DNA of 32,000 nucleotides from an uncultured Lentisphaeria bacterium (GTDB lineage Bacteria; Verrucomicrobiota; Lentisphaeria; JABSQK01; JAJFLO01). A program made the position numbers and the translations under genes. This document shows positions 13,326 to 31,640 of the stretch, one piece after another; within the stretch, counting starts at the first letter, position 1; every line of letters starts with the position of its first letter. Location: the NCBI GenBank assembly GCA_951812855.1, contig OX638337.1, forward strand, positions 240,001-272,000, read 5' to 3'. Under the pieces are notes generated by a model that worked only from the letters and a program-made list of their open reading frames with translations, had not been told where the DNA came from and made no database searches.

Positions 13326-14135
13326 AATCTATGGGATTTGGATATCAATATTCGGACACATCTTTCTGATATCTGATTTCGAGCTGTTGTCTGGCTAAAT
13401 CAAAATTCCCTGTAGAACTGTATAGACAGGCAATTCCGGTATTGGCTTCAATTGATTCAGGATCAACAGCAGGCGATTTGCTTCTTTTGGCAGGTCAAAC
13501 ATTTCTTTTGAAACAAACTCCAAAAGCCAATAGAAGGTCAGTCATAATAAATCATAGGGAATTAAAAATATATTAAAAAAAGATATCAATTTATAGCAAA
13601 TGATTTACCTGAGGATCAAGAATAGAAACTGTAATTGAAAAACAGGTTTTCAATGTTGCAATAAAATGTTAGGTTTATTAAATAATTTGGTTTAGCGTTT
13701 TATCTCAAGCTTTGACAAGAACTCATTAATTAGCTATTTTATAGATATTAACATAAAGAAATGCTGTATTAGAATAATTATAGAAAAGATTGAATATAAT
13801 TTTTAACCGGTAACATATCTAAAATGACTAAAGAATTTATATCATTAGTCAAATTAATTCATATCGCTTCAGCTTCATAATAATAATGCTCGGCATGATT
13901 TCGATTGTCTTCATTATCTAAGCTCTGAATTTGAAAAATTCTTCAAGGTTTCAGACCGTATTCAGTTCGCTTAGTAAAAGTATATAATTACAATAAGAGC
14001 CGGATAAAACACCTTTTTGATTCATATAACTGATTATTAACAATACTGTTTCCTCTGCCTTATAACCAATGCAGTTATTTCTCCAATTAAACACGTCACT
14101 CAAGACTCACACGACTAACAAAAGGTGTTGCCGGT

Positions 14136-17305: not shown

Positions 17306-20300
17306 TTAATTCAATTTCAAATCAACCTGACCCGGTCCGGAATTTACATAAACCCAATATCCTCTCCCTGCTTCCAGCTTATCTGCTGTTACAAATATCT
17401 GGTTCGCCGCATCCCAGTACCAGATCGACCGACTCACTCCATCAGACACTCCGGGCAGTGAAGCAACCGCACCATCTCCAGAGGGTCCAATAAGATTCCA
17501 GCCATTCTCAACACTCACACGTGAGTTCGTCACTGAATTACCCGGAATATTTTGCAGCGTAATGTCTCGATCAGCATAAATCCAATATCCGGTTTTAGAA
17601 GAAACAACTGATTCATCTCTAATAAATTTTGTCATTCCCGGTTTAGCATCCCAGCGCCAGGGAAACCCCTTAATACAACGGGTGCCATCTGGACATTTAA
17701 ACAAATCCAGCGGAGACTGATCTAACGGTCCAGTTTTAATTGAAATCAAATTCCATCCGCGGAACAATTGCATCTTCTGAGTAACAATAGCAATAAAAAT
17801 ATTCATTTGAACCGGGTCAGACAGTAGACCCAAAGCATCGTTTTTATCTCTAACTCTAAAGACAATTGAATCAGAATTCGGTGCACTATCATCAATACCG
17901 GTATTCAGTGTATACGTTATCGATAAACCTTTCAACTGTACCAGAGAAGCATCACCACCGCTATTAAAAGACAGTGTCCCTTTTCCTGGGAATTGTTCGA
18001 TTGATAAAGAAAAATCATCCAGTTGAATTCCAGCAGTATAATCACGGTCACTTATATCAAATAAATCTCTGGAAATTACCGCAGATTTCGTTTCCTTAAT
18101 TACTAAGAGTCGGTGGATCGATAACGTTGGTTTATAGCGAATATTCAGAACATTGCTCTTAACCCAGGCTGATGGTAATGTTGAGGTAAAAACACGAACT
18201 TCAACAAACCACTGATCGCCTTCGACAAGATTTGCGTTCCCAATTCGTGCTGAAGTGAATGTCGCCTGAATTACATTATTCTTAGACCATCGATACTGGG
18301 TACTTATGATGGTATCACCATCCGGATCTGATTTTGATACCGATACAGTCAGATCATCACCGACTCTTCCATTTTCCAGGCCCAAAACGGCCTCGGTTAC
18401 ACGGGGTGGACGATCTACGTTTTGAACAGTAACCTTAAATGTCATGGAATCAATACTATTCGCCTTATCCCGACCATCATCAACCTGGACAGTTACATCT
18501 GATTCTATACTCGGATTACCAGTGGACGCCACAGTAAATTCAGGCTTATAGCTATAGGTATTACCATTTGTAATTTGTCCGGGTCCACTTGTTATAGAAT
18601 AGGTCAGTGTATCCTTCGGTACTGTCAGATTGTCTGTATCCGGGTCAATTGCAATTAATTGAAATAACAGCGTCTGGTTTTCATTAACAGTCTGCGGTGT
18701 TATTTGAGTCATTACCGGTGGATCATTGACCTCGGTAACTGCAATTGTTACTCTTGCAATAGTCGAATAACCTTCTGCATCTCTAACCTTAAAGGTAAAT
18801 GAATCCTCTCCGAATACATTATCATTTGGATTATACATGACTTTGGGACTCCGCTCCCCCAACTCCGGCATATCAATACTGCTCAGCATACCGTTTTTAG
18901 GTGAAACAACGATCTCGTATCTAAGATCATTTCCTTCAGTATCTGCGGCCGTCAAATCTATCGTATGATTTGTATCTTCCAACGTGGATTCACCGGGTAA
19001 ATTAATTGCGGTCGGTAAACTATTTGATACAGCACCGAGATCCATACGGAATACATTGTCAGTACTAATATTTTCACCTAATAAATCTATTGAGTCATTG
19101 GCAAATACAGCAAACCTGCCATCTTCAGAAAGCTGACCATAATATGAATCACCACTACCATATAAATTTAATCCATCAACCGATAATGGTGCGACTCTAT
19201 TCTCTGTATCAGGAATAACTGAACTTAAATCAAGTCGATAAGCATGATCCTGAGAATTAGATGGCGACCTGAAGGAACTGTTCTCAAAAGTAAAACCCGT
19301 TGCAGGACTGACAAAATATAGATATCTCCCATCCGCGGACAGTCTGGGAAATTTTGCATTTGCAATCGTCTTGATGATTCGGTTCGATGATAACTGTGTA
19401 AGGTCAGCAACCTCGATACTCGATTCAATACCATAAGAAACAAAACGCCCCGTCCAGGATAAGGTCGGAAAAGACATATCTCCGCCCGTGTTCAAATGGC
19501 GAACAATATTACCGGAATCAAGATATTTTATCCACACCGCATTCGTTGTCGATTCATTACCGGGGGTATTAGAAAACTCCCCTTTTGTAATGAATGCGAC
19601 CCGATTACCATCCGGGCTTATCGAAGGTAGAATACATGATTTTTCTGTTTGTTCCTTATTTTTCCCTTGACTTACAAGCTCTAATTTTCCGTTTAGCGGT
19701 CTCCAAATATAAACATCCCTATACAAATCACGATCGGTGGCAAGAGACGGTTCATTATCGTCAGAAACCAGTGCATCAAACGTATTAAACACCAATGCCT
19801 TGCCGTCCGCAGAAATGGATAGATTTGTCGGTGCAGAAACTGACATTGTGATCGGTGCAGAAATATTTCCGTTTTTATCAATTAATGACCAATATAACTG
19901 TTGCGGATTCGCTGAAAGATCCACATATGCAATGGCATTGCCATTTAAAGAAATTACGGGTAAATGTGGCAAATTTGTAAATGTATTGTTAGTTGAAAAA
20001 TTATTTACTAATTTCGTTTTCCCTGACACACTGTCTCGAAGAAAAATACCACCAACACCCTGTACAGTTAGATTTGTAGAATCACTGCTAAATAAAACCC
20101 AACGTCCGTTACCGGAAAAACCAATACTGTCTCTGTCTTTAAACACCGGAGACGATGCGTTGCCAAATACTGAGTTTGGGCCTGCAGTTCCGTCAACCGT
20201 ACTTTCTACGGATAAATAGCCAATTGAAAAATCAGCAAGGGTAATAAATACACTCGCCGGTATGGACCATACCTGACCATCAGACACCTGGTAACTGAAC

Positions 20301-21838
20301 GAAATATAATGATTGGTTGTTTTATCACTTAATTGAAATTTTAAGGGAAGTTTCGCTGGAGTAAATGGTTGGTTAATTAAAATTGGATTGTTATCTTTGT
20401 CAGAAACAACGCCGATACCGCTTTCAGGCAATTCACTTAGTCTATACATCAAACTGCTTTCGGAAGTTTCAGCATCCTCTCCCTTTACCTGTATGTTGCA
20501 GGGACTCGCTGTCGTATCTTTATTACAATCTAATTTTACATCTGTAACAACAGGTCGATTGTTTCCGTCGCGGTCATATCGATATACCTGATGATAATTA
20601 CTGTTCATTAGATTCGACAGATTTGATGCTGATGAGGAAAACGTGATATATCGTCCATTCGGTGATATTGCAGGGCTGGAACAACTGCTGTCTGCACCCA
20701 TACCATCTATACCTAATGAAACACATTCCATTTTTTTTGTTTGAACATCAACGACATAAATTTGAAACACACTGTCTACTGCTCCCGGAAAATTAGATGA
20801 TTTCGACCGAAATACCAGGTACCGACCCGTATCATCTATATCGGGTTCATCACTATCATCGTCACCCTGAAAAAGACCATCAATCAAGTTGACCGGCTCA
20901 ACAGTGCCCGAACCTGTCTCATACAAAAAAATGTCTTTCTTTGCATTCGTATCATTTTGAACAATATCACTGTCCCGACTTACAAAAACAATCTTAGTCC
21001 CATCTCCTGAAATTGCAGGCTGATGACTCGCCTCTGTGGTTTCTGAATCACTTAATTTTTTGTTAATTCGTTGAATATTTCCGTCATTCCACAAAAAGAT
21101 ATCGGAAACATTGTTTCTGTCATTCATATCAAATCCGCCGTCAGAGGATTCAAATACAACCTGCTGACCACTATTACTGACATCAGGCCAAAAACTGCCG
21201 GCTGACGGTGTTTTACTTTTTATACTTATCCGAATCGGTTGCCTACTAACTCCCAATTCCCTCATATAAATATCGGATTGAGTATCTAAGACAGTGTCGA
21301 CTTCAAGATTATCATCAGCTTCATAAACCAGAAAGCTGCCATTATCTGATAACTTAAGATGATTGAAAAATTTACTCCCGCCTGCAATAGCTGAGAGATG
21401 ACTAACCGGGCTGTCTATTTTTCTCCATAGGAGAATCTGATTCTGATCATTTGCATCTGTATTCTGTCTCAACTCTGCGTAGTTGTCTCCACCAAATGCA
21501 ACACTAAGGGCAAGAGGGAAATTACGATTAATCAAGGTTGCTAAACTAAGAGTTTTAATACCTGAAGCTGAAGAATAATTATATACATCTGCACCTCCGC
21601 CAACATCCCGGGTATCAAAATTTGATGCCTTAGACAAAAAAACGATAGTTCCGGCATTGTCGACTGGAGAAATAACCCATGATGATTCCGACAAAAAACC
21701 GCTATCACTGTTTCCTGCTTTCATCTCGCCATTTTCTTCAAACGTTGAAATAATCTGTAGGGAACCTGCAAAGGCATATTGTGAATGGTAAGTTGCTAAC
21801 CAAATTACAAAAAGGACTATTATATAACATCTATTCAT
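17306..21838 (-). CDS. Giant secreted protein: two PD40/TolB-like propeller blocks, cadherin/Ig-like repeats and a C-terminal twin 'GWNLI...GYW' domain
   Basis: 1510 aa with signal peptide MNRCYIIVLFVIWLATYHSQYAFA|G. At least 12 blade motifs of the type S-x-[DN]-G-x-x-[VIL]-x-[FY]...D[IV][FY] occur (e.g. ISGDGTKIVFVS, ISPNGRYITFSS, FSGNGRWVLFSS, ISPDGNRVAFIT, LSADGRYLYFVS, LSEDGRFAVFAN). Cadherin-like repeat boundaries are VNDPP (aa 1037) and VDRPP (aa 1141). Confidence 0.9.
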   Translation of the reverse strand: MNRCYIIVLFVIWLATYHSQYAFAGSLQIISTFEENGEMKAGNSDSGFLSESSWVISPVDNAGTIVFLSKASNFDTRDVGGGADVYNYSSASGIKTLSLATLINRNFPLALSVAFGGDNYAELRQNTDANDQNQILLWRKIDSPVSHLSAIAGGSKFFNHLKLSDNGSFLVYEADDNLEVDTVLDTQSDIYMRELGVSRQPIRISIKSKTPSAGSFWPDVSNSGQQVVFESSDGGFDMNDRNNVSDIFLWNDGNIQRINKKLSDSETTEASHQPAISGDGTKIVFVSRDSDIVQNDTNAKKDIFLYETGSGTVEPVNLIDGLFQGDDDSDEPDIDDTGRYLVFRSKSSNFPGAVDSVFQIYVVDVQTKKMECVSLGIDGMGADSSCSSPAISPNGRYITFSSSASNLSNLMNSNYHQVYRYDRDGNNRPVVTDVKLDCNKDTTASPCNIQVKGEDAETSESSLMYRLSELPESGIGVVSDKDNNPILINQPFTPAKLPLKFQLSDKTTNHYISFSYQVSDGQVWSIPASVFITLADFSIGYLSVESTVDGTAGPNSVFGNASSPVFKDRDSIGFSGNGRWVLFSSDSTNLTVQGVGGIFLRDSVSGKTKLVNNFSTNNTFTNLPHLPVISLNGNAIAYVDLSANPQQLYWSLIDKNGNISAPITMSVSAPTNLSISADGKALVFNTFDALVSDDNEPSLATDRDLYRDVYIWRPLNGKLELVSQGKNKEQTEKSCILPSISPDGNRVAFITKGEFSNTPGNESTTNAVWIKYLDSGNIVRHLNTGGDMSFPTLSWTGRFVSYGIESSIEVADLTQLSSNRIIKTIANAKFPRLSADGRYLYFVSPATGFTFENSSFRSPSNSQDHAYRLDLSSVIPDTENRVAPLSVDGLNLYGSGDSYYGQLSEDGRFAVFANDSIDLLGENISTDNVFRMDLGAVSNSLPTAINLPGESTLEDTNHTIDLTAADTEGNDLRYEIVVSPKNGMLSSIDMPELGERSPKVMYNPNDNVFGEDSFTFKVRDAEGYSTIARVTIAVTEVNDPPVMTQITPQTVNENQTLLFQLIAIDPDTDNLTVPKDTLTYSITSGPGQITNGNTYSYKPEFTVASTGNPSIESDVTVQVDDGRDKANSIDSMTFKVTVQNVDRPPRVTEAVLGLENGRVGDDLTVSVSKSDPDGDTIISTQYRWSKNNVIQATFTSARIGNANLVEGDQWFVEVRVFTSTLPSAWVKSNVLNIRYKPTLSIHRLLVIKETKSAVISRDLFDISDRDYTAGIQLDDFSLSIEQFPGKGTLSFNSGGDASLVQLKGLSITYTLNTGIDDSAPNSDSIVFRVRDKNDALGLLSDPVQMNIFIAIVTQKMQLFRGWNLISIKTGPLDQSPLDLFKCPDGTRCIKGFPWRWDAKPGMTKFIRDESVVSSKTGYWIYADRDITLQNIPGNSVTNSRVSVENGWNLIGPSGDGAVASLPGVSDGVSRSIWYWDAANQIFVTADKLEAGRGYWVYVNSGPGQVDLKLN

Positions 21839-22130
21839 TCTAAAATTCTCAAAAACAGGATTTCTGCACTATACAGAGATATAAACGGTTTAACTCATTG
21901 TTACACTTAGCCGGACATATACGATAAAATAAATTTATCAACAGCATGAAAAAAACATTAAATTAACTGTGTCAAACATCGGTGGATATGTTCTAATCAT
22001 ATTCATTGGAGTTCATAACCCAAATGATACATATCTCTGTACTATCAAAAAACGGCGTATTTAGTCGTTGCGTGATTTCAAACAGCATACTGATACCCCG
22101 GGTTTTTCCTAATAAAACCAAATCAATTAT

Positions 22131-22165
22131 AAACAAAAAAGTCCCGCCTGGTCAAAAAGCGGGAC
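22131..22165 (-). terminator. Rho-independent terminator downstream of the beta-barrel gene
   Basis: On the minus strand, GTCCCGC (22165-22159) pairs with GCGGGAC (22147-22141) across an 11-nt loop, followed by TTTTTTGTTT (22140-22131). The hairpin starts 31 nt after the stop at 22196. Confidence 0.75.
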
Positions 22166-22195
22166 TCTTGAAAATGGTTTGCAAAATTATATCTT

Positions 22196-23197
22196 TTAGA
22201 AACCAAATATTAATTTTGCCTGTGTACTTGATCCACTAAGATCGACATCCGCCAGGTTCGTAGAGACATCATCAAAGACATAATCAAATCGATATTCGAG
22301 ACCAACTGCAACTGATTCATTAAGATTATAATTCAGTCCAGCATTTACATAAACTCCAAACAATAGATCGGTGGCATCATCTTTCAACTTTTTTGTGAAA
22401 TTCGCTCGCTGTACAGCATCAACATCAAGATCTGCAATTGTTAACGTTGGACCGGCCCCAATAATAAATCCAAAGTTACCTGCCTTAAAATTTCCGCTGA
22501 CACCTGCTCCAAACGTGTAAGCAGCCAAGTCAAGATCATACTCAACTCTACCCGTTACATTCGCTGCAGCACCAAGACTTATCGGAGCAGGAAAATTTCC
22601 TGCTGTTACCTCTCCGTCTCCGTCTTCATTGACATTTCGTAAGAAAACTGTTCCCGTCACATTTGTAGATAACGTTGTTGTTTCTGGATTAAAGTCTTCA
22701 TCTGTATCTGAAAGAGCGGTTGCAAACGAGAGATCAAGCTCCCAGGAGTAACCAGATTTTTCTTTCAAAACTCTTCTTGCACCAAAGACAACTCCACTGC
22801 CCTCATCAAATTCCTTGTCAGCACCCATAAACGTAATACTGTCATAGGTAACTCGAATCGGAATATCCGCAGCAGATACTTCAGCCGGAATATCAACCAA
22901 ACCATTTAACGGACTAAAATCAATAAATACCTTTGGAACATTTGTCTGATCAGCTTGAAATAAACCCGGAGCTTGAACAGCCCCGTCTTCTACAACTAAC
23001 GTATCCGCAGCATATGTACCGTTGACAAATTGTGATGCTGGATATTTGGGATTAATAAACCTGAGTTGTTCAAAATCAATATCGTCAAATGTTCGATAAT
23101 TTGCACCAATTGAAAAACGCCAGTCACTCTCGGCTGCTATTACATTACCAATCATCAGGCAAAAGGCGAAAATCGCTAATAACTTTCTATATATCAT
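22196..23197 (-). CDS. Outer-membrane beta-barrel protein, family not recognised
   Basis: 333 aa with signal peptide MIYRKLLAIFAFCLMIGNVIA|AE. Amphipathic strands alternate throughout (WRFSIGANYR, WELDLSFATAL, YTFGAGVSGNF, FGFIIGAGPTLTIA, LLFGVYVNAGLNYNL, VAVGLEYRFDYVF). The C-terminus ...AKLIFGF ends in an aromatic residue, as in OMP/BAM substrates. An AGGAG SD lies 9 nt upstream. Confidence 0.85.
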   Translation of the reverse strand: MIYRKLLAIFAFCLMIGNVIAAESDWRFSIGANYRTFDDIDFEQLRFINPKYPASQFVNGTYAADTLVVEDGAVQAPGLFQADQTNVPKVFIDFSPLNGLVDIPAEVSAADIPIRVTYDSITFMGADKEFDEGSGVVFGARRVLKEKSGYSWELDLSFATALSDTDEDFNPETTTLSTNVTGTVFLRNVNEDGDGEVTAGNFPAPISLGAAANVTGRVEYDLDLAAYTFGAGVSGNFKAGNFGFIIGAGPTLTIADLDVDAVQRANFTKKLKDDATDLLFGVYVNAGLNYNLNESVAVGLEYRFDYVFDDVSTNLADVDLSGSSTQAKLIFGF

Positions 23198-23243
23198 AAT
23201 AGTTTGCTCCTCTTTTCAAATTTAGAATTGATTACTTACAACT

Positions 23244-26200
23244 TTATTTTACAACAAAGAAAAACTGTCGACTCCAGGGGCCGTTTACTGTCGCGGTTGT
23301 TCCACGAACTCTTATTTTTACAATTGTAATCGTCTTGTTTGCTAATAACGGCTGCTGGAAAATATCAGTTAACTCCAATCTAAGGGTGTCAGCATTAACA
23401 ACACCGATATTTTTTGGTACAACAGCTAAAGGCGAATTTAATGTCTGAGTTACAAAACCATCGGTTTTGGTATCACCAAACCGCCTAATTGATGCTTCAA
23501 ATACCAAATTTGTCGGAATTAACGAATTCGTTCCAAACCCTGATACATCAATTGAATCAAAAGACTGACCATCAGTTGTATCAACATCAACAGGAGCAAT
23601 TGACAGTTCATTAAGTTCATGACCCGTTTGATCAGGCTTTGGTTTTGGAATATAACTCTTAATCCTTGCATCAGCATCCAGTTTTTCTTCTCCGGTAATG
23701 CTATTACCTGCATCTCGTTTAACATGAATTGGCGTAACTTTTACCAGATAAGTAACATCCTTTTCCGCAATATTAAACCCGGCAAGAGTACTTGTTATCG
23801 TGATCTCATTACTTTGATTGTCAGCGAACTCAGCCGTATAACTCTTTTCTGTTGTCGAATTTATAAGACTCACCAAAACTTTTTCTGCTTCGACAACAAT
23901 CCATTCAGTTTTGATTATAATCTGAGTGTCACCAACTTCAGGTTTTGTTTTTAATGATATATCTGCTAAGATTGGAACTGCAGTCGCGAGCTCAGGTTCA
24001 ATCTGGAAATATCGAGGGGGACTCCAGATATCATTAAATCCGATACTATTTTTCGTAATGACATGCCATCTGTACTGCCCGGGTTTTAAGGATACATTAA
24101 AAAACCTGTTTCCATTTGTGGCACCATTATTTGTCAAATTAATTGCCATTCCTCCGGCGGTTGCAACAAAGACAGAATAATCAGCAGCCTTGTCGACCTT
24201 ATCCCATTCAAGCCTGACGACAGCTTCATTGTTTGCACTCGCGGTTCCCACAAGGAATCCAGGATTAGTGGTATCAGGTTGGGCGATACCGGGTTTCATG
24301 GAGTTTTCATCCACACCAGATGGAGCTGCCGTAACCGTTACTGCAGTTGCTATATTAAATTTTCCTGTAACTGCGGTTCCATCACCTTTCGGATTACGAG
24401 GGGTAATACTCCACTCAAAATCTCCGCCACCTTCAACAAAAACATCCAGTTCTGTAAATTCACCGTCTATGGCAATCACTCCTTCAGCGTCTGGCTGTAA
24501 TATCTGGTCATACTGCAATATATTATTTGTAGCGAGTGATTTCACAGCGATTGTATACCCGGAAGAGTTACCCAGATTAAATATAAAATTTTGATTATCA
24601 TTCGCACCGAATGGATTGTCTGACCCTATGGGAATATCCGGCGTTGTAACCGCAGTAGTAAATGTCGCCGGGATTGTCGCAGACGCATCGGCATAACTGT
24701 CAACGTCAAGTTCTTTTCTCTGTTTTCCAACAGCTTCAAACATCATACTCTCACCATTAAACTTCGAGACTGAAACCACGTATTTACTGCCGAATGCAAT
24801 ACTTTTAGGATCATCGCAGGCACCATCAGCCGGAGTAGCATCGACACATGATGGTTTCAACCCATTCACATTGGCCTGTAAATAATCAATCGGGCTAACA
24901 GATTTTTTGGCAGCACTCGTCTTTATCGTTGTATTCAGTACTGTTTGAAAATTTTCGTCTTCTGATTCAAGTTCAATAAGAACTTTATAAACTTTCCCGG
25001 CAAAATATGTATTTTCGTCTATACTCTCCGGCACAGAATCAAAATCTTTAATATCGATAAATGGGAACCAGGGCGGTGTTCCGACTGCGATTCTGGCAGT
25101 TCCATCATTGGATTTTGCAGCTTTCACCGCTGCACCGTTATCCATGCCGTTATCAGTTGCAAAAAATGTAAACTCAGCTCTCCCGTTTGGAGGTGGATCT
25201 GACAGGGTTGGGAAAAACCAAACCTCTGCCTCGTTATCAACTGCAGTTATTGTGCTGTTTGTTCCAATTACAATATCAGCACCACCCGTCGCAGCCGTTT
25301 TTAATACACCCAGGTTTGCAGCCGGCAGCTCTTTAATTTCAAAACTGGCTATCGCACCACCGATATCATCCGGATCAGTTCCTTTTAATTTGACAGGGAT
25401 AGATAATGTATTGGCTTCATTTTGTCTACCAACACTACCCGAAACGTCACTAACGCTCGGTTTATCATTGACGGGATCGACATCTATTGTAACCGTTTGT
25501 TTTGTTGTAGAAATCCCTCCGCTTCCATCTCGTACCCAAAAATCAAAACTGTCTGCATTTTCACCGGTACCATTAAAGTTTTTAACAGGTTTATATTTCA
25601 AATCCGTACGCTCTAACGTTATAGTTAACGTTATAGTCCCCCCTTTTGCTGTTGTTATAGGAAATGGATCACCTGTTGCAGAAGAAACAATACTTAAAGC
25701 AGTTAACAGATTATCAGTCGGATCATCATCGTTAACAAATATATCAGTTGAAGATGGAGTTTTCGTGTCTCCAAGAGTTACTGATATTTTCTTTTCTGTA
25801 TCCTCTTCTGCCGTAACAGCAGAGCTCGGCTTAGACGCTGTAGGCAGCGTATTTGAGATAGTGATTGATTTAGTGAGATCCTGACTTGCAATACTTTCAG
25901 CATTTTCTCCATCTTTTGCTCTCACACGAACCTTGACGACGTCGCCCTTTTCAAACTGACCGTCGAATTCTGTATCATCTGCATCACCGTCTGATGTTTC
26001 TACATCATTTACAAACCAGACAATAGCCAAATCCCCAGCGGTATTCGGCTGCAAATCATCCTCAGAATCTGCATCTGCCGGTATTGCCTGCGTCAAATCA
26101 ACATTTATTTTACTTGCCCTAAATGCCGGATCAGGAGTTAAAGATACAGAACCGCTGATGGTCGGGACGCTGTTCAGTACAGTTTTTTGTCCTGACCTCG

Positions 26201-28706
26201 GTTCCGAGTCTGCAATTCCATCGAATGCAGTCACTTCACATGTCCATACACCTTTTTTGACATCGGCACTGTTAATACCTGCCTCAGTGGTTGTGCTGCT
26301 TAGAACTGTATGTTCTTTTATAACCACATTTCCTTCGGTTGTTGTATCTGTCTTTCCACCAAAATTCAGCGTTCGTTTCCAGGTAAACTTGTACTGCTTT
26401 TTACCCCCTATTGCGTCTTTATCAAAATCAGCTGTTCCATCCGGCGATCCAACAGGCAGAATATCTGTATCATCAGGTGTAACGGTCGCAGTCAATACTG
26501 CACCGGCAAAAGCCGGGTCAGGGTTAGAGGAAACAACGACCGCTTTGGGTCGATGCGGTGCCTGATTTTCCAGGTAACGGACACTTATATTTTGTGAATC
26601 TCCTTCTCCGTCAACCTCATCGATGGCTGAATACGTAAAAACTTCTTTCGCCGTTATTTCGCTGGCAACAGTTGCAACTTTGAAATAAATCACAGCAGTG
26701 TCTGATGAAGCGGTAATTGTTGTATCCACTGAATCAATTGCCGTCGTTGTCGCAGCTGAATCTTCCCATAATGTCCCGACAGTGTCTGTTGGCAGAGTCT
26801 TAATTTTGTACTCTTTAATCGAATCATTATCATCATCTTTAGCTGACAGAGTGATTTCAAAAATCTGCGGATCGGGTACCTCCGGCGGCGTCTGTGGTTT
26901 TGTAAAAACGACATCTATTTCGTTCGCGACAGGTGCTGTGTTGGCAATCTCAACCGGTGCGGACGTTACCGGTGCACTTGTATCTGTATCATCTTTTGCA
27001 GTGACAACAACCTGAAACTGATCTCCGCGATCAAATTTTGTCTTGCTTCCAGCTAATTCCGAGAAAGTCAATGTTTTATTGGTCGCACCTGCAATAGGAC
27101 CGAACGCTCCAGTACCAATTTTCTGATGCCATTGATATTGAAATACAGGTGCTTTTGCACCAACATCGATTCCCTCATCAAAATCCTGATCGACAATTGT
27201 TAAACCAGTCGCTGTCAATGTACTGTTAAATTTAGGTGACGCAGGGGCAATTGTAAGCGGAGTTGTCTGATCCAGCGTTGGTGCAATATTTCCAATTTTA
27301 TTTGAGAGCACTGCCTCGACAAAATCACTTTCCCCGCTTGCATTCGTTGCCCTTACCAGAAGTTTTATCGTCTCGCCTTTTTTAAACTTTGAACTGGCAA
27401 GGTCTGCTATAGTACTGATTGTATAAACCCTATCGCTGCCGGTACCATCTGCTGTTCCCGCAACATCTGTTCCTGCTGCTCTGGGAATATCTCCGAAGGC
27501 ATTTGCCCATTTCCAGTCAAAGGTTATCGCTTCCTGACGGTCATCCGGATCGAATGCAGTAACCAAAGCTGGAGCGATAACATTATCGTTTGTATTACTG
27601 CCTCCCGATATCGTAAAGGCTTCTATCTGAGGCGGCTTATTCGGAAGGACATTAAACGCCCATTGTGCTGCTTGTTGTAATCCGGCAGTACCTGAATCAT
27701 TCCCGAAAATCTGCAACAGATAGACGTTTCCCTGAGGTTGATCCGCCGGTATAAAATCAGCAGGGATTTTCCAATTAAACTCGATCGTAACCTTATTCGT
27801 TACCGAAGTATTGATATTAACGTTGAATGTGTGTTCAAATTTACCTTGAGTCAGAGTCTTGTCATAAGAAGTAACTTTCAGATTAATCGGAACGATACCA
27901 TTTGTACCCCCTCGAAAAGATGGTGTTAAATCTTCCGTAATCGTTTCAGGCGTGTAAGCAGTTCCAGTTCCATCGCCCTGAGCTTTAACAACTCGAAATG
28001 ATACATCGTTTACATCAGCTTTAACTGGAACACCTAAACCAGTAAATGTTGTAATAAACTGTGAAGTGGCAGCACCATTGCTAAACTGATTTGCCAAGGC
28101 AGCTTTTGCAATATTTAGCTGTGATGCAGCAGGACTGTCTAAACTGACTGCAATAGAAGGAGATGCTGTTAATTTTACAGTAATCTGCTTAGGTTTTTGA
28201 TTTCTTGCAAATCCACCATAAGTAGGTTTTGCAACTAGCGTTATCAATGCATCACCATTAAAACCTGAAGGGACATCCACCGTAAATAGAAATATTTTTG
28301 TATTTCCATCGTCAGGATTGAAATTCTTTATGTAAGCTCCACCAGCTCTACGGGACGTATCATTATGAGGAAATTTCTCAAAAGTTTCAGGTTCAAGATG
28401 AAACTCTTTTCTTTTTGGCACCCATGAAAATGTATCTTTCCCCCATTCTTTTGGAAAAAAGAGATCAAAAGCAAAATTTTCGGGTTTATCAGTCGAATTA
28501 TAATCTATGGTAAACGCTATATTAATATCTGAACCTGCAGAGTAGGTAAATGGTTCTTCAGGTAATGTATTTGAAACTGCCCCAGTATAGGCTGACAATT
28601 TTGATGTAAACGTTGATTGAGAATATCCATTTTGAACAATGCCAAATGAACAGGTCATTGTTAACATAAAAATGAAGATGTTATTTTTTCTTATATTCAT
28701 AGCCAA
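23244..28706 (-). CDS. Giant secreted repeat protein (Ig/cadherin-like, FN3-like and four 'W-module' repeats)
   Basis: 1820 aa in the ORF track, from a TTG at 28706. An ATG at 28700 sits 11 nt after AAGGAG, the same spacing as the upstream gene, and is the likelier start. The signal peptide is ...IFIFMLTMTCSFGIVQNGYS|QS. Three cadherin-like repeats occur (e.g. ...FDFWVRDGSGGISTTKQTVTIDVDPVNDKP). An FN3-like unit reads VVRLEWDKVDKAADYSVFV...GQYRWHV. Confidence 0.9.
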   Translation of the reverse strand: MAMNIRKNNIFIFMLTMTCSFGIVQNGYSQSTFTSKLSAYTGAVSNTLPEEPFTYSAGSDINIAFTIDYNSTDKPENFAFDLFFPKEWGKDTFSWVPKRKEFHLEPETFEKFPHNDTSRRAGGAYIKNFNPDDGNTKIFLFTVDVPSGFNGDALITLVAKPTYGGFARNQKPKQITVKLTASPSIAVSLDSPAASQLNIAKAALANQFSNGAATSQFITTFTGLGVPVKADVNDVSFRVVKAQGDGTGTAYTPETITEDLTPSFRGGTNGIVPINLKVTSYDKTLTQGKFEHTFNVNINTSVTNKVTIEFNWKIPADFIPADQPQGNVYLLQIFGNDSGTAGLQQAAQWAFNVLPNKPPQIEAFTISGGSNTNDNVIAPALVTAFDPDDRQEAITFDWKWANAFGDIPRAAGTDVAGTADGTGSDRVYTISTIADLASSKFKKGETIKLLVRATNASGESDFVEAVLSNKIGNIAPTLDQTTPLTIAPASPKFNSTLTATGLTIVDQDFDEGIDVGAKAPVFQYQWHQKIGTGAFGPIAGATNKTLTFSELAGSKTKFDRGDQFQVVVTAKDDTDTSAPVTSAPVEIANTAPVANEIDVVFTKPQTPPEVPDPQIFEITLSAKDDDNDSIKEYKIKTLPTDTVGTLWEDSAATTTAIDSVDTTITASSDTAVIYFKVATVASEITAKEVFTYSAIDEVDGEGDSQNISVRYLENQAPHRPKAVVVSSNPDPAFAGAVLTATVTPDDTDILPVGSPDGTADFDKDAIGGKKQYKFTWKRTLNFGGKTDTTTEGNVVIKEHTVLSSTTTEAGINSADVKKGVWTCEVTAFDGIADSEPRSGQKTVLNSVPTISGSVSLTPDPAFRASKINVDLTQAIPADADSEDDLQPNTAGDLAIVWFVNDVETSDGDADDTEFDGQFEKGDVVKVRVRAKDGENAESIASQDLTKSITISNTLPTASKPSSAVTAEEDTEKKISVTLGDTKTPSSTDIFVNDDDPTDNLLTALSIVSSATGDPFPITTAKGGTITLTITLERTDLKYKPVKNFNGTGENADSFDFWVRDGSGGISTTKQTVTIDVDPVNDKPSVSDVSGSVGRQNEANTLSIPVKLKGTDPDDIGGAIASFEIKELPAANLGVLKTAATGGADIVIGTNSTITAVDNEAEVWFFPTLSDPPPNGRAEFTFFATDNGMDNGAAVKAAKSNDGTARIAVGTPPWFPFIDIKDFDSVPESIDENTYFAGKVYKVLIELESEDENFQTVLNTTIKTSAAKKSVSPIDYLQANVNGLKPSCVDATPADGACDDPKSIAFGSKYVVSVSKFNGESMMFEAVGKQRKELDVDSYADASATIPATFTTAVTTPDIPIGSDNPFGANDNQNFIFNLGNSSGYTIAVKSLATNNILQYDQILQPDAEGVIAIDGEFTELDVFVEGGGDFEWSITPRNPKGDGTAVTGKFNIATAVTVTAAPSGVDENSMKPGIAQPDTTNPGFLVGTASANNEAVVRLEWDKVDKAADYSVFVATAGGMAINLTNNGATNGNRFFNVSLKPGQYRWHVITKNSIGFNDIWSPPRYFQIEPELATAVPILADISLKTKPEVGDTQIIIKTEWIVVEAEKVLVSLINSTTEKSYTAEFADNQSNEITITSTLAGFNIAEKDVTYLVKVTPIHVKRDAGNSITGEEKLDADARIKSYIPKPKPDQTGHELNELSIAPVDVDTTDGQSFDSIDVSGFGTNSLIPTNLVFEASIRRFGDTKTDGFVTQTLNSPLAVVPKNIGVVNADTLRLELTDIFQQPLLANKTITIVKIRVRGTTATVNGPWSRQFFFVVK

Positions 28707-28764
28707 GTGTACTCCTTTATTTTTTTAATATTCTACAGATTTTATTTGAATAATAGCCGTTATG

Positions 28765-31002
28765 TTATTTTAATTTAAAACCATCACTATTTGGAGGGGG
28801 ATTTAAGTCAAGTTCAAAGCCATTAGCTGACTTAAATAAAGCGATTATCCTGGCCAATTCACTCGTACCTATTTTCCAATCTTGCCCTGCTTCCTCCGAA
28901 AAGTCAGTTGTATCAGGCTTTAGAAAGTCTCCACTATGGAATCTCTCAGCCGGTCTCTTTTGGGTTCCTGCCCGAAATCCATCACTCTCTGCCGGGGGGT
29001 TTGGGTCAACTTCAAATCCATTTTGCATTTTGAATAATGCAATTATTCTTGCTAACTCCGAAGTCCCAATCTTAGAATCTTTGCCTGGTTCTTCAGAAAA
29101 CTCAGTTACATCGGGTTTTAAAAAGTCAGCACTATGAGCACTATGAGCACTATGCCCTAATGTTTTAACGGATTGAAATCCGGTATTTGGGATTAATGCG
29201 ATTATTTCGTCGTCAGTAACTGAATCATCAGGATCGAATTCCGCCCTGGAATTTACAAAACCCGTTGCTTCTTTAGGTCCGGTCATTTCAGTTGTTTTTA
29301 ATAGCAGATCATCCTCGGGACCAACGATACGATAGGTTACAGAAAATTTATTTTTCAGGTCAGCAGGATTGGTTTTCCATGATAATTTAATTTTTCGATT
29401 CACTCCATTTCCTTTTATCTCAGGAAGATAAGAAGCATCTGGTAAAGCACTGATACTCAATATTTCACTCTCTGCAGCTGAATCGTATCCTGTAACAGGA
29501 ATATACCAAAAACCTTTGAAATCTGAGGGCAGCGTCTCTTCAAGAACAAATTTGGTCAAGTCCGTAACAACTGAGGTGTCGATCGTGAAATTTAAGGTAA
29601 CGGTCAAGCCTAAACCGGTTGTTTCATCATGTGTATATGACCCGCTTCCATCAGCGTCATGATAAAGCAGTCCGGAAACTCCGGTTACACTTCCATTATC
29701 TGCAGTATCCCAGCCGTCGCCGCCATCATAGATTTGAATATCGCCGGTGTCATATTTACCGTCGGCGTTTACGTCCTGCCAAATATCTTCACCCGGAGAA
29801 TAACCAGAAGGACTTATGTCGTTATACAAAATACCTGTCGTAATTCCCGGCACTGAGTCCGTTTGAAACCCATTTGAAAAATCAGTATCATCCGGCGATC
29901 CATCAAACACTTTAGTATCAACGCCATCGTCGTACTGATTCGCTGTGCCAGTATTTACATCAACCCAGATATCCTCACCTTCTCCGGCTTTTGCAATCGT
30001 TTTATCCAATGTTCTTTCGACCTTCAAACCTGATTTAAATACGGTAACGGTAACTGTACCGGGATCACTTGTTAATGGGGCTTTCGGATGATTATCTTTG
30101 ATTCTATATTGAAATGTCCCCTCAAATTTATCTTTAGAATTATCAGTAAACGTTTTATTTGTCAGCTCAGGTGCAGGCGTAAACTCGAGGGTTTCGCTCC
30201 CGAAAGATTTTGATAATGATCCCAGGGTAACAGACGTTTCCAAACTATCGTCGACAACCGTAGCCGGGAAACTGTCATCAACAATTGAAATCGTTTGACC
30301 AGTATCTGTTTCAATATCATTCTCAGTTACACTGATTGTAAATGGTGACGTTGTTGATTGTAAATACAGGTGGTTTTCGGGATCATCAACGGCAATAGGC
30401 TTTGCGTTATCGACGGCCATAATGATTTGAACTGTTTTGAACCCGGATGAATCGGCAGCAAATTTGTATTGTGCTTTAGTCTTACTGGTAATTGTAACGT
30501 TACCGCCTGCAACGGGATTTTGTAAATTGACTAAAACAGTCCCATTTATATCACGCACCTCAAATTTACTAAAACCATCTGTGTTTGATCCTCCAATAAT
30601 GCTATTGGTTTTGCTTGCTTCGAACACCGCCCCTCCAGCCTGCAGCAGTTCCGGATTCCATTCCAAAACAATACCGGCGGTTGTATCACGAAATACCAGA
30701 TCGAGTAAATATGAGGCACTTGACGATATCGGTCTAAAATCTCTGGCAGATGCAACAGTTCCAATCCTGAATGAAGCAGCGTTTTTACTAATGGGTCCCA
30801 GGGGAGGTTGAATTTCTTTGCTGTCAATTGCATCAAGACCAGGCTCAGCAGTTGAGTCCATACCGATAGCATAAGAAGCTTCAGCAAAAGCGGTTTGAGT
30901 CAGTTTAAATGGAAAAATTATTTCGGGATCCTGTGCCTGAAGGGATGGCATGGCTGCTAAAATAAATATTAACACAAAAGAATGAAGGATTTTTCGGCTC
31001 AT
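28765..31002 (-). CDS. Secreted protein with a cadherin-like repeat, Asp-rich Ca-binding-like loops and a C-terminal twin EF-hand/dockerin-like repeat
   Basis: 745 aa with signal peptide MSRKILHSFVLIFILAAMPSLQA|QD and AAGGAG 11 nt before the ATG. KPIAVDDPE...TFQYRIKDN...GTVTVTV forms a cadherin-like unit. GEDIW[VQ]DVN... loops are duplicated. Two 55-aa C-terminal repeats are present. Confidence 0.9.
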   Translation of the reverse strand: MSRKILHSFVLIFILAAMPSLQAQDPEIIFPFKLTQTAFAEASYAIGMDSTAEPGLDAIDSKEIQPPLGPISKNAASFRIGTVASARDFRPISSSASYLLDLVFRDTTAGIVLEWNPELLQAGGAVFEASKTNSIIGGSNTDGFSKFEVRDINGTVLVNLQNPVAGGNVTITSKTKAQYKFAADSSGFKTVQIIMAVDNAKPIAVDDPENHLYLQSTTSPFTISVTENDIETDTGQTISIVDDSFPATVVDDSLETSVTLGSLSKSFGSETLEFTPAPELTNKTFTDNSKDKFEGTFQYRIKDNHPKAPLTSDPGTVTVTVFKSGLKVERTLDKTIAKAGEGEDIWVDVNTGTANQYDDGVDTKVFDGSPDDTDFSNGFQTDSVPGITTGILYNDISPSGYSPGEDIWQDVNADGKYDTGDIQIYDGGDGWDTADNGSVTGVSGLLYHDADGSGSYTHDETTGLGLTVTLNFTIDTSVVTDLTKFVLEETLPSDFKGFWYIPVTGYDSAAESEILSISALPDASYLPEIKGNGVNRKIKLSWKTNPADLKNKFSVTYRIVGPEDDLLLKTTEMTGPKEATGFVNSRAEFDPDDSVTDDEIIALIPNTGFQSVKTLGHSAHSAHSADFLKPDVTEFSEEPGKDSKIGTSELARIIALFKMQNGFEVDPNPPAESDGFRAGTQKRPAERFHSGDFLKPDTTDFSEEAGQDWKIGTSELARIIALFKSANGFELDLNPPPNSDGFKLK
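28768..29130 (-). repeat. Two 55-aa protein-level tandem repeats (28966-29130 and 28768-28932) separated by an 11-aa linker
   Basis: R1 is ADFLKPDVTEFSEEPGKDSKIGTSELARIIALFKMQNGFEVDPNPPAESDGFRAG. R2 is GDFLKPDTTDFSEEAGQDWKIGTSELARIIALFKSANGFELDLNPPPNSDGFKLK. The DNA copies are strongly diverged. Confidence 0.9.
29131..29157 (-). repeat. 9-bp in-frame tandem repeat (CATAGTGCT x2 plus a partial copy CATAGT) encoding HSAHSAHS
   Basis: The plus strand reads actatgagc actatgagc actatgccc, which on the minus strand gives GGG CAT AGT GCT CAT AGT GCT CAT AGT. It lies immediately 5' of repeat R1. Confidence 0.85.
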
Positions 31003-31440: not shown

Positions 31441-31640
31441 AAGCTGATAGTGGAGCAGTAGTATTAATAATTGAATAAGAGGAGAATCCGGTGAAATTCC
31501 GGAACGGTCGCGCCGCTGTAATCAGGAATGACTGCTGCAATATACCACTGTTCTTAGACATAAAGGATGGGAAGGTGCAGCAGTATGATACCTGAAAGTC
31601 AGAATAACCTCATATATACGAGTGTGTTCCGCGTAAGAGA
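31441..31640 (+). promoter_or_regulatory. Cobalamin (B12) riboswitch aptamer
   Basis: Conserved blocks appear in the right order: AAGAGGAGAATCCGGTGAAATTCCGG, CGCCGCTGTAA, the B12 box ACCACTG, GGGAAGG, and AGTCAGAATAACCT. It lies upstream of a TonB-dependent receptor, a classic context. Confidence 0.85.

Follow-up and report, generated by a model that had tools for sequence, protein, structure and literature searches.

A recurrent three-gene cassette pairs two giant, putatively exported proteins with a predicted outer-membrane β-barrel in Verrucomicrobia/Lentisphaerae-type bacteria

We analyzed a 32,000-nucleotide stretch of DNA from an uncultured Lentisphaeria bacterium (assembly GCA_951812855.1, contig OX638337.1, positions 240,001 to 272,000), hereafter the window, which carries a locus of four minus-strand genes, g1 to g4. 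Three of them, g2, g3, and g4, would constitute one copy of a conserved three-component cell-envelope unit of Verrucomicrobia/Lentisphaerae-type bacteria. In the proposed arrangement, the two large acidic proteins g2 and g4 are exported by the Sec pathway and held at the outer membrane by a cognate β-barrel, g3, encoded between them. An earlier reading made from the letters of this DNA alone (the sequence-only reading) had treated all four genes as one surface locus. The g2–g3–g4 part of that unit is conserved, but g1 is restricted to the window lineage and the relative nearest to it. The open reading frames (ORFs) of 745, 1820, 333, and 1510 aa lie exactly where that reading placed them. As it also stated, all four products appear to begin with a Sec-type signal peptide, judged by inspection from a basic K/R n-region, a hydrophobic core, and an A-x-A-like site. 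All four are acidic, with isoelectric points (pI) of 4.1–4.6.

The gene neighborhoods of barrel homologs down to about 25–35% identity were compared, and the same two kinds of giant gene recur beside them. Wherever the upstream DNA is long enough (11 of 11 contexts), the gene before the barrel encodes a giant with the g2-type C-terminal module. A hidden Markov model (HMM) of the module finds it ahead of the barrel both in the window and in the loci L002, L010, L009, L013, L014, L018, L020, L021, L033, and L067. The upstream giant gene ends 12–100 nt before the barrel in every usable context. A g4 ortholog lies downstream of the barrel in eight lineages (window, L009, L013, L014, L018, L020, L021, and L033), each of which shows the complete three-component order on one strand. 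The cassettes of L002, L010, and L067 have two components or are cut by a contig end.

The profile of g4 retrieved 47 genome loci, five of which encode the twin domain found at the C terminus of g4. The barrel is present in four of these five loci and in none of the other 42 (Fisher p = 2.8e-5, indicative only since the loci are related). The four barrel-positive loci also encode a g2-type giant; the fifth, L017, stops short at 1.4 kb of upstream sequence. The DNA at L017 1–1488, upstream of g4, looks non-coding, contains repeated short elements, and ends the contig; the repeats may explain the assembly break.

The two neighbor types are kept across barrel identities of 25–64% and locus GC contents of 38–67%. 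Relative to the window, the barrels of L002, L013, L009, and L014 are 64, 35, 36, and 31% identical, and the g2 C-terminal modules 49, 31, 27, and 27%. For g4, the values are 45, 38, and 34% in L013, L009, and L014. The identities of the components rise and fall together, and each cassette therefore appears to evolve as a unit.

A paralogous cassette (L013 4624–15636) is located on contig ptg000035c of ERZ18545485 (1.94 Mb), which also carries the proteins of the window. A second contig, of 1.947 Mb, likewise carries both the window and L013 cassettes. A genome of ~1.95 Mb therefore holds two paralogous copies. In the second copy, the upstream giant has 1762 aa and a Beta_helix/NosD head, the barrel has 358 aa, and the downstream PD40/cadherin/twin-domain protein has 1346 aa; a g1-like gene is absent. 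This arrangement suggests duplication of a whole cassette followed by diversification of the head. These data bear on the possibility that g3 is a generic OmpA/OmpX-like porin lying by coincidence among large adhesin genes. The sole curated family matched by g3 is indeed the generic OMP_b-brl. Yet a rare family that keeps the same neighbor types, including a whole-cassette paralog in one genome, makes coincidence extremely improbable, and the synteny effectively refutes chance juxtaposition.

The barrel family is small: when 1.84 billion cluster representatives were searched exhaustively with a HMMER profile, 250 matched at E ≤ 1e-3 and 47 of them at E ≤ 1e-30. Its members are mostly 290–350 aa long. 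A word-indexed search of 5.8 billion proteins returned only two g3 relatives, with 64% and 36% identity, and a pattern-based genome scan with barrel alignment A1 gave no match. Residues 212–315 of g3, and no others, match Pfam OMP_b-brl (PF13505 clan) with 32.5 bits against a cut-off of 28.7. This generic outer-membrane protein (OMP) clan is matched by 36 of 60 family members and is the only recurring Pfam signal. By these sequence comparisons, the family appears rare but real, and not a generic porin. A distant branch is fused to N-terminal extensions of 200–520 aa (P0072, P0101, P0127, P0131, P0134, P0143, and P0150). The extensions match no Pfam family and resemble none of g1, g2, and g4. 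Among the fused forms, the gene whose context was examined, that of P0072 (L066 10001–12139), has no giant neighbors and lies near cobalt-transport (CbiM/Q/O-type) and BNR/Laminin_G genes.

An AlphaFold2 model of g3, built from a 60-sequence alignment, is a confidently predicted barrel with a predicted local distance difference test score (pLDDT) of 90.2 and a predicted template modeling score (pTM) of 0.82. The DSSP string contains about ten strands (residues 26–35, 114–129, 133–147, 150–169, 172–198, 217–239, 242–264, 268–291, 296–307 or to 318, and 322–332). Strands 4–8 are long (20–27 residues), and the first, second, ninth, and tenth are of membrane-spanning length. A conserved, partly well-ordered insertion of 78 residues follows strand 1 (residues 36–113; DNA 22859–23092). 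If the model follows the usual OMP topology, its insertion and long strands would face outward. The conserved D-x-D motifs (221/223, 256/258/260, and 317/319) cluster at the end presumed to be outward.

R35, G281, R303, and D305 are invariant among the 60 aligned family members. E301, R303, and D305 of an E-Y-R-F-D motif at 301 occupy alternating positions on the lumen side of g3, and R35 is likewise lumen-facing. Because the lumen is lined by conserved charged residues, the model suggests that it is plugged and does not form a pore. Like the family consensus, g3 ends in Phe, typical of the OMP β-signal.

The best Foldseek matches of g3 in the PDB are OmpT/Pla, OpcA, Ail/OmpA, and Legionella Dot/Icm-associated porins, with TM-scores of 0.3–0.5 and identities of 8–12%. 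Autotransporter barrels (EspP/NalP) rank low in the list, and no secretion-system barrel stands out. The barrels of OmpT/Pla, OpcA, and OmpX/Ail resemble g3 in having 8–10 strands, several of which extend well beyond the membrane. OpcA, Ail, and OmpX bind external ligands via the protruding part. The structured 78-residue insertion and the strict genetic linkage to giants are found only in the g3 family. Identity of g3 as an omptin protease was considered and rejected: the TM-scores are 0.34–0.41 with 8–10% identity, none of the 60 members matches Omptin, and no His is invariant or nearly so, as would be needed for the Asp-Asp/Asp-His catalytic residues of omptins on the extracellular rim.

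The upstream giants share only their C-terminal ~650–780 residues, whereas their N-terminal parts differ among lineages, as judged by BLAST and local HMM comparison. Compared with L002, the N terminus of the g2 head is only 35% identical and the middle is replaced. The head and shaft region is occupied in other cassettes by CHRD, by beta-helix/NosD, or by long cadherin arrays. The Pfam matches of g2 are confined to Big_9/Cadherin_4 units around residues 950–1200 and one fn3 match in a segment scan. Within the C-terminal module, no PDB relative was found by sequence or profile, and no Pfam family beyond the Big_9/cadherin start and the fn3 match. The module contains the signature GTPPWFPFIDI at residues 1209–1219 and an FN3-like unit at 1497–1571. 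Its terminal strand reads '...IRVRG...GPWSRQFFFVVK' ('GPWS...F' in the conserved giants). There are only four cysteines in g2.

The downstream giant g4 matches Pfam PD40, Big_9, and Cadherin_3/4/5. It is sequentially composed of a PD40 propeller region (~45–935, with conserved Cys pairs and two propeller regions), Big_9/cadherin units (939–1333), and the twin domain. All downstream partners have the same architecture, and g4 orthologs are 34–59% identical over nearly the full length where alignable. Searches of the PDB with g2 and with g4, by sequence and by profile, gave no useful match. Cysteines 372, 386, 438, 447, and 735 are invariant across four orthologs (34–44% identity); the conservation is consistent with disulfides in an exported protein. 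The sequence-only reading had described all three large proteins as PD40/cadherin mosaics. That description holds for PD40 and cadherin in g4 and for Big_9/cadherin in g2, but PD40 is confined to g4, and g1 has no Pfam match.

The twin GWNLI..GYW repeats pointed out by the same reading, one beginning at 1361 and the other at 1446, are real (z = 9), and every ortholog conserves them. The twin domain occupies the extreme C terminus of every protein encoded downstream of the barrel. An AlphaFold2 model from five orthologs is all-β, with a pLDDT of 79 and a pTM of 0.74. The domain gave no significant Foldseek match in the PDB (best E = 0.24), none by profile, and none in Pfam.

A third repeat, the 'W-module', had been proposed as an evolutionary link between the giants, and this link was not borne out. 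Four such modules of ~110–130 aa in g2 (358–956) have marginal mutual similarity (z 3.4–4.6). Between g2 and g4, the best score is z = 3.2, with a phmmer E of 0.013, and a profile from the four g2 copies, built on a poor MAFFT alignment, gave no g4 match. Better support for relating g2 to g4 comes from the Big_9/cadherin region (blastp E = 7e-7). From the pattern of conservation, the elements that tie the giants to the barrel appear to be the g2 C-terminal ~650–780 aa and the g4 twin domain, not the 'W-module'.

We propose that g3 is the cognate surface anchor for both giants, analogous but unrelated to the SprB–SprF pair; we would put this at an even chance. The g2 protein would form a fibre whose distal head and shaft evolve fast and whose proximal stalk of ~780 aa is conserved. 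The g4 protein would be a double-propeller/cadherin protein ending in the twin β-domain. Strands 4–8 of g3, its acidic rim, and the 78-residue first loop may project outward as a docking platform, to which the C-terminal modules of g2 and g4 would bind non-covalently. The variable N-terminal parts of the giants could then contact the environment, such as a host or particle surface. The cadherin-like units are probably stiffened by Ca2+. The g1 protein may be an accessory subunit that attaches through its twin repeat, and the giants might cross the outer membrane via a type II secretion system. In both giants the conserved region is C-terminal and the N-terminal heads are variable, which was counted in favor of anchoring. 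The analysis establishes the gene structure, the conservation, the strict co-occurrence, the barrel fold, and the lack of known sorting signals; export, surface exposure, physical binding, adhesion, and the outer-membrane route of the cassette proteins are what we infer.

Pairs of this kind are known from T9SS, the type IX secretion system. The T9SS type-B cargo proteins SprB and PG1035 bind adjacent PorP-like barrels for surface anchorage (PMC9143113). As in SprB–SprF of Flavobacterium johnsoniae and PG1035–PorP of Porphyromonas gingivalis, a giant Sec-exported adhesin is encoded directly upstream of a ~330-aa barrel. The conserved element of the cargo is C-terminal in both cases, and the barrel of the type-B pairs is a non-covalent anchor (PMC9143113). 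The position of g1 upstream in the same presumed operon resembles that of the accessory genes sprC/sprD. Unlike the T9SS pairs, the cassette has a second giant, of PD40/cadherin/twin-domain type, downstream. Its C-terminal modules are either much larger than T9SS C-terminal domains (CTDs), at 780 aa, or of a different, unclassified fold.

No T9SS CTD (TIGR04183/PF18962 for type A, TIGR04131 for type B) was found in g1, g2, or g4 at E ≤ 0.1, or in segments at E ≤ 5, nor was one found on the partners in L033, L021, and L020. PorP_SprF (PF11751) matches 0 of 60 barrel members at E ≤ 0.05 and is absent from the Foldseek top 50. Membership of the PorP/SprF–T9SS group was rejected, given the lack of a family or CTD match and hosts labeled as members of the Planctomycetes–Verrucomicrobia–Chlamydiae (PVC) group. 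To our knowledge, Verrucomicrobia/Lentisphaerae (PVC) lineages lack T9SS. Every T9SS/PorP feature tested is missing, and the resemblance is therefore one of functional analogy, not homology.

The cassette may be a display system of the PVC lineage in which the barrel acts as receptor, and possibly export partner, for two new C-terminal targeting modules. Such a system would be an evolutionarily independent counterpart of T9SS type-B-CTD/PorP, or a split autotransporter. We advance this idea tentatively and regard it as doubtful.

A dedicated secretion role would make g3 an outer-membrane translocator or a partner in export assisted by the β-barrel assembly machinery (BAM), for g2 and perhaps g4, in the manner of a split autotransporter. 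The conserved C-terminal module would then serve as a recognition and threading element. The pairing of a barrel with a large β-rich passenger is reminiscent of type V secretion, and the order of variable passenger, conserved C terminus, and barrel mimics type Va. From the signal peptide to the barrel gene 46 nt further on, the layout is collinear with type Va. The Ig-like and cadherin-like arrays recall type Ve (intimin/invasin), and neither the proteins nor their surroundings show any other secretion signature. Some family members have an N-terminal extension fused to a C-terminal barrel, and one of the 60 members weakly matches Pfam Autotransporter (PF03797, E = 1.3e-4).

Against a secretion role, the barrel has only ~10 strands, not 12 or 16, as well as conserved charged lumen residues, and neither a POTRA domain nor a linker helix. 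Barrel and cargo are separate polypeptides with their own signal peptides in every lineage. The fused forms lack giant neighbors, and their extensions bear no relation to g1, g2, or g4. The top structural matches are non-translocating barrels. The g3 model contains no helix apart from the signal peptide, and PF03797 does not match g3. Two-partner secretion (type Vb) finds no counterpart either: there is no POTRA/ShlB, no Pfam match to the TPS or haemagglutination-activity domain, and the conservation of g2 is C-terminal, not N-terminal. We consider a secretion role for g3 unlikely.

Other sorting routes leave no trace in the locus. As the sequence-only reading had noted, the proteins lack LPXTG, PEP-CTERM, RTX, lipobox, T9SS CTD, and POTRA signatures (regular expressions, Pfam, and NCBIfam), and the window contains no ATP-binding cassette (ABC) transporter or membrane fusion protein (MFP) genes. 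The giants resemble the RTX adhesins of type I secretion systems (T1SS), such as LapA, SiiE, and MpIBP, in their very long acidic fibres of Ca2+-type Ig/cadherin-like units and variable distal ligand-binding region. Those adhesins have no Sec signal and possess RTX nonapeptides, a C-terminal T1SS signal, and ABC/MFP/TolC neighbors, features that the cassette lacks. The cassette proteins have signal-peptide-like N termini and no RTX motif, and their neighbors are of the fatty-acid synthesis, phosphofructokinase (PFK), and phosphoribosyl pyrophosphate (PRPP) synthetase type. The reading's broader proposal, Sec-exported giants with a dedicated outer-membrane partner, is upheld in its recurrent synteny and in the lack of a sorting domain, but the unit has three genes, and we still only infer surface location, adhesion, and contact.

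The giants could also bind or degrade polymers, with the barrel as a small uptake channel, loosely like a surface glycan-binding protein and its transporter. The upstream giant of the paralogous cassette has a Beta_helix/NosD, pectate-lyase-like fold, g4 gives faint Tricorn/PD40 signals, and a few barrel family members weakly match FadL/Toluene_X or TonB-receptor barrel models. Weighing against such nutrient capture, no catalytic domain is recognized in any window protein, and the barrel is small, with conservation in a charged lumen and in extracellular elements instead of a channel. That the C-terminal modules of the giants are strictly conserved suggests docking, not catalysis. This alternative is weaker than anchoring, and we think it improbable.

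Also weaker than anchoring is the idea that g2 and g4, like TolB, stay in the periplasm as an envelope scaffold bound to the inner side of the barrel; we rate it quite improbable. The N-terminal ~900 residues of g4 are PD40-type propeller blades as in TolB/PD40 proteins, and no outer-membrane translocation signal was found. The N terminus of the barrel would be periplasmic, as would the N-terminal extensions of some relatives. However, the TolB model (TIGR02800) scores only 35.1 bits on g4 against a cut-off of 343, there are no tol/pal genes in the window, and g4 differs from TolB in its two propeller regions, cadherin units, and new C-terminal domain. Cadherin/Big_9/CHRD/beta-helix arrays that span 1800–3000 aa and bear hypervariable heads are characteristic of extracellular proteins. 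Relatives of the g4 PD40 region occur in monoderm phyla (Actinomycetota, Saccharibacteria) and, given a monoderm host, can therefore only be extracellular. The conserved, elaborated first loop and long strands of the barrel would also face outward by the usual topology.

Several observations weigh against g3 as the surface anchor of both giants. A few fused barrel-family members lack giant neighbors, and the family thus also occurs apart from giants. In the L002 lineage and on two short contigs (L011 and L012), the barrel is not followed by a g4-type gene, and g4 is thus not obligatory beside it. A DSSP string and conservation are the source of the strand count, the lumen plugging, and the outward platform, and the twin-domain model rests on five sequences. 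Anchoring also leaves the passage of the giants across the outer membrane unexplained.

The kind of system, a giant adhesin with a dedicated outer-membrane partner, is known. The barrel family, both C-terminal modules, the three-gene architecture, and the PVC host range have no precedent in Pfam, NCBIfam, the PDB, or the literature searched. For the attachment of very large proteins to the outer membrane in Verrucomicrobia, Lentisphaerae, and their relatives, the cassette provides a concrete candidate. The two C-terminal modules could act as predictive 'address tags' for surface proteins of uncultured marine and host-associated bacteria. If the barrel is a cognate anchor or exporter, the cassette would join T1SS retention, type V secretion, and T9SS/PorP as an independent solution to the display of giant adhesins. 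Regions without Pfam coverage, which make up all of g1, ~70% of g2, and the tail of g4, would then gain a functional context. If it only anchors ordinary adhesins, the definition of the domains and the family would still be useful, with no conceptual advance.

Table 1. Features of the locus and genes upstream of the barrel in related cassettes
Feature	Residues	Position (nt)	Strand	Description	Basis
g1		28765..31002	(-)	745-aa acidic secreted protein (predicted), pI 4.4	ORF call
g1 C-terminal twin repeats	623-688 / 689-745	28768..29136	(-)	z=37 vs shuffles	
g2		23244..28706	(-)	1820 aa, TTG start	ORF call
g2 variable head and shaft	~30-1038	25593..28619	(-)	with Big_9/Cadherin_4 units	
g2 conserved C-terminal module	1039-1820	23247..25592	(-)	24-52% identity in every cassette	
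g3		22196..23197	(-)	333-aa outer-membrane β-barrel (predicted)	ORF call
Intrinsic terminator after g3		22137..22169	(-)	13-bp stem, 6 GC pairs, T-run	consensus scan, predicted
Sigma-70-like site TTGACC-18-TATAAT		22126..22155	(-)	11/12 consensus matches, best of the region, overlaps terminator hairpin	
g4		17306..21838	(-)	1510-aa secreted protein (predicted)	ORF call
g4 C-terminal twin 'GWNLI..W.W..GYW' domain	1352-1510	17309..17785	(-)	two all-β units	
L002-L006				740-aa g1 ortholog, then 2597-aa CHRD/cadherin giant, then barrel	
L007/L009				upstream giant cut off	
L010				upstream giant at least 1594 aa	
L013				1762-aa beta-helix/NosD/cadherin giant upstream of barrel	
L014-L016				871-aa gene, then 3069-aa cadherin giant	

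The spacing of the first three genes is compact, as had been noted, with 58 nt between g1 and g2 and 46 nt between g2 and g3, each with a Shine–Dalgarno site (AAGGAG and GAGGAG). An AAGGAG site also precedes g1. The gap between g3 and g4 is 357 nt and contains the strong predicted terminator recognized by the sequence-only reading, a T-tailed hairpin just past the stop codon of the barrel gene. A candidate promoter embedded in the terminator (Table 1) could drive g4, and by this consensus match the termination of the g1–g3 transcript and the initiation of g4 may be physically coupled. The terminator does not appear to set g4 functionally apart, because g4-type genes follow the barrel in eight lineages, sometimes within 12–70 nt.

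The g1 protein has no Pfam, NCBIfam, or PDB match and contains no cysteine. The L002 lineage alone has an ortholog (45% identity). The C-terminal twin repeats of g1 have the pattern 'HS.DF...DWKI.TSEL.RII.LF...GFE.D...DGF'; they recur in the g1 of L002 and, in the close relative L017, in an unrelated cadherin-like protein of 365 aa. On these grounds g1 appears to be a lineage-specific accessory and its twin repeat a portable module. The L017 protein has a signal peptide and is encoded at L017 5785–6882 (-), between g4 and the PFK gene. The repeats had been called dockerin-like; they are real, but the label is a visual resemblance only. A dockerin identity found no support, with no Dockerin/EF-hand Pfam match for residues 600–745 at E ≤ 5. 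Neither a CxxCH motif nor a dockerin model match was found in the four proteins (regular expressions, Pfam/NCBIfam), g1 has no DxDxDG motif, and no protein of the locus matches cohesin. An 'HSAHSAHSA' tripeptide-repeat linker lies just before the twin repeats (residues ~614–622; 29137–29163 (-)). In a closely related strain, g1 is 744 aa long instead of 745.

The carriers are metagenome-assembled genomes (MAGs) labeled Verrucomicrobia/Lentisphaerae, with L018 labeled Victivallales, L020 Lentisphaerales, and L021 Verrucomicrobia OFTM300. L017 is 'Verrucomicrobia bacterium OFTM167', and its genes in the same order are identical to those of the window by 90% (PRPP synthetase), 80% (pyrophosphate-dependent PFK, PPi-PFK), and 59% (g4). 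A complete, divergent cassette is present in L033 (JBAYBT010000053.1; barrel E = 1e-34), a 16-kb contig of 38.5% GC labeled Parabacteroides sp. in a Bacteroidota bin. It is either a mis-binned contig or a cassette outside the PVC group. L002–L006 (WLWD01002269.1, SRR10090331, SAMN12718690) derive from the metagenome of the marine sponge Mycale hentscheli, in which the contigs of the pateamine producer were assigned to the PVC superphylum (PMC7157528). No informative name is on record for the cassette proteins, the sole one being 'hypothetical protein' on a 40-aa fragment, and nothing specific on comparable Lentisphaerae systems was found in the literature searched.

The left flank of the locus is of housekeeping type, in agreement with the sequence-only reading, and includes plsX, fabH, fabG, fabF, and genes for a LysM protein, a 7TM-HD protein, and CorC, as well as a pyridoxal phosphate (PLP) decarboxylase, PRPP synthetase, and PPi-PFK. 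An AT-rich gap of 810 nt (13326–14135, ~30% GC) extends from the PLP-decarboxylase to the PRPP-synthetase gene; it has no ORF of at least 100 aa and no Rfam or tRNA match. To the right of the locus, a cobalamin riboswitch is located at 31448–31631 (+), divergent from g1 (Rfam RF00174, 72 bits); the 370 nt that remain of the window after it contain no clear ORF.

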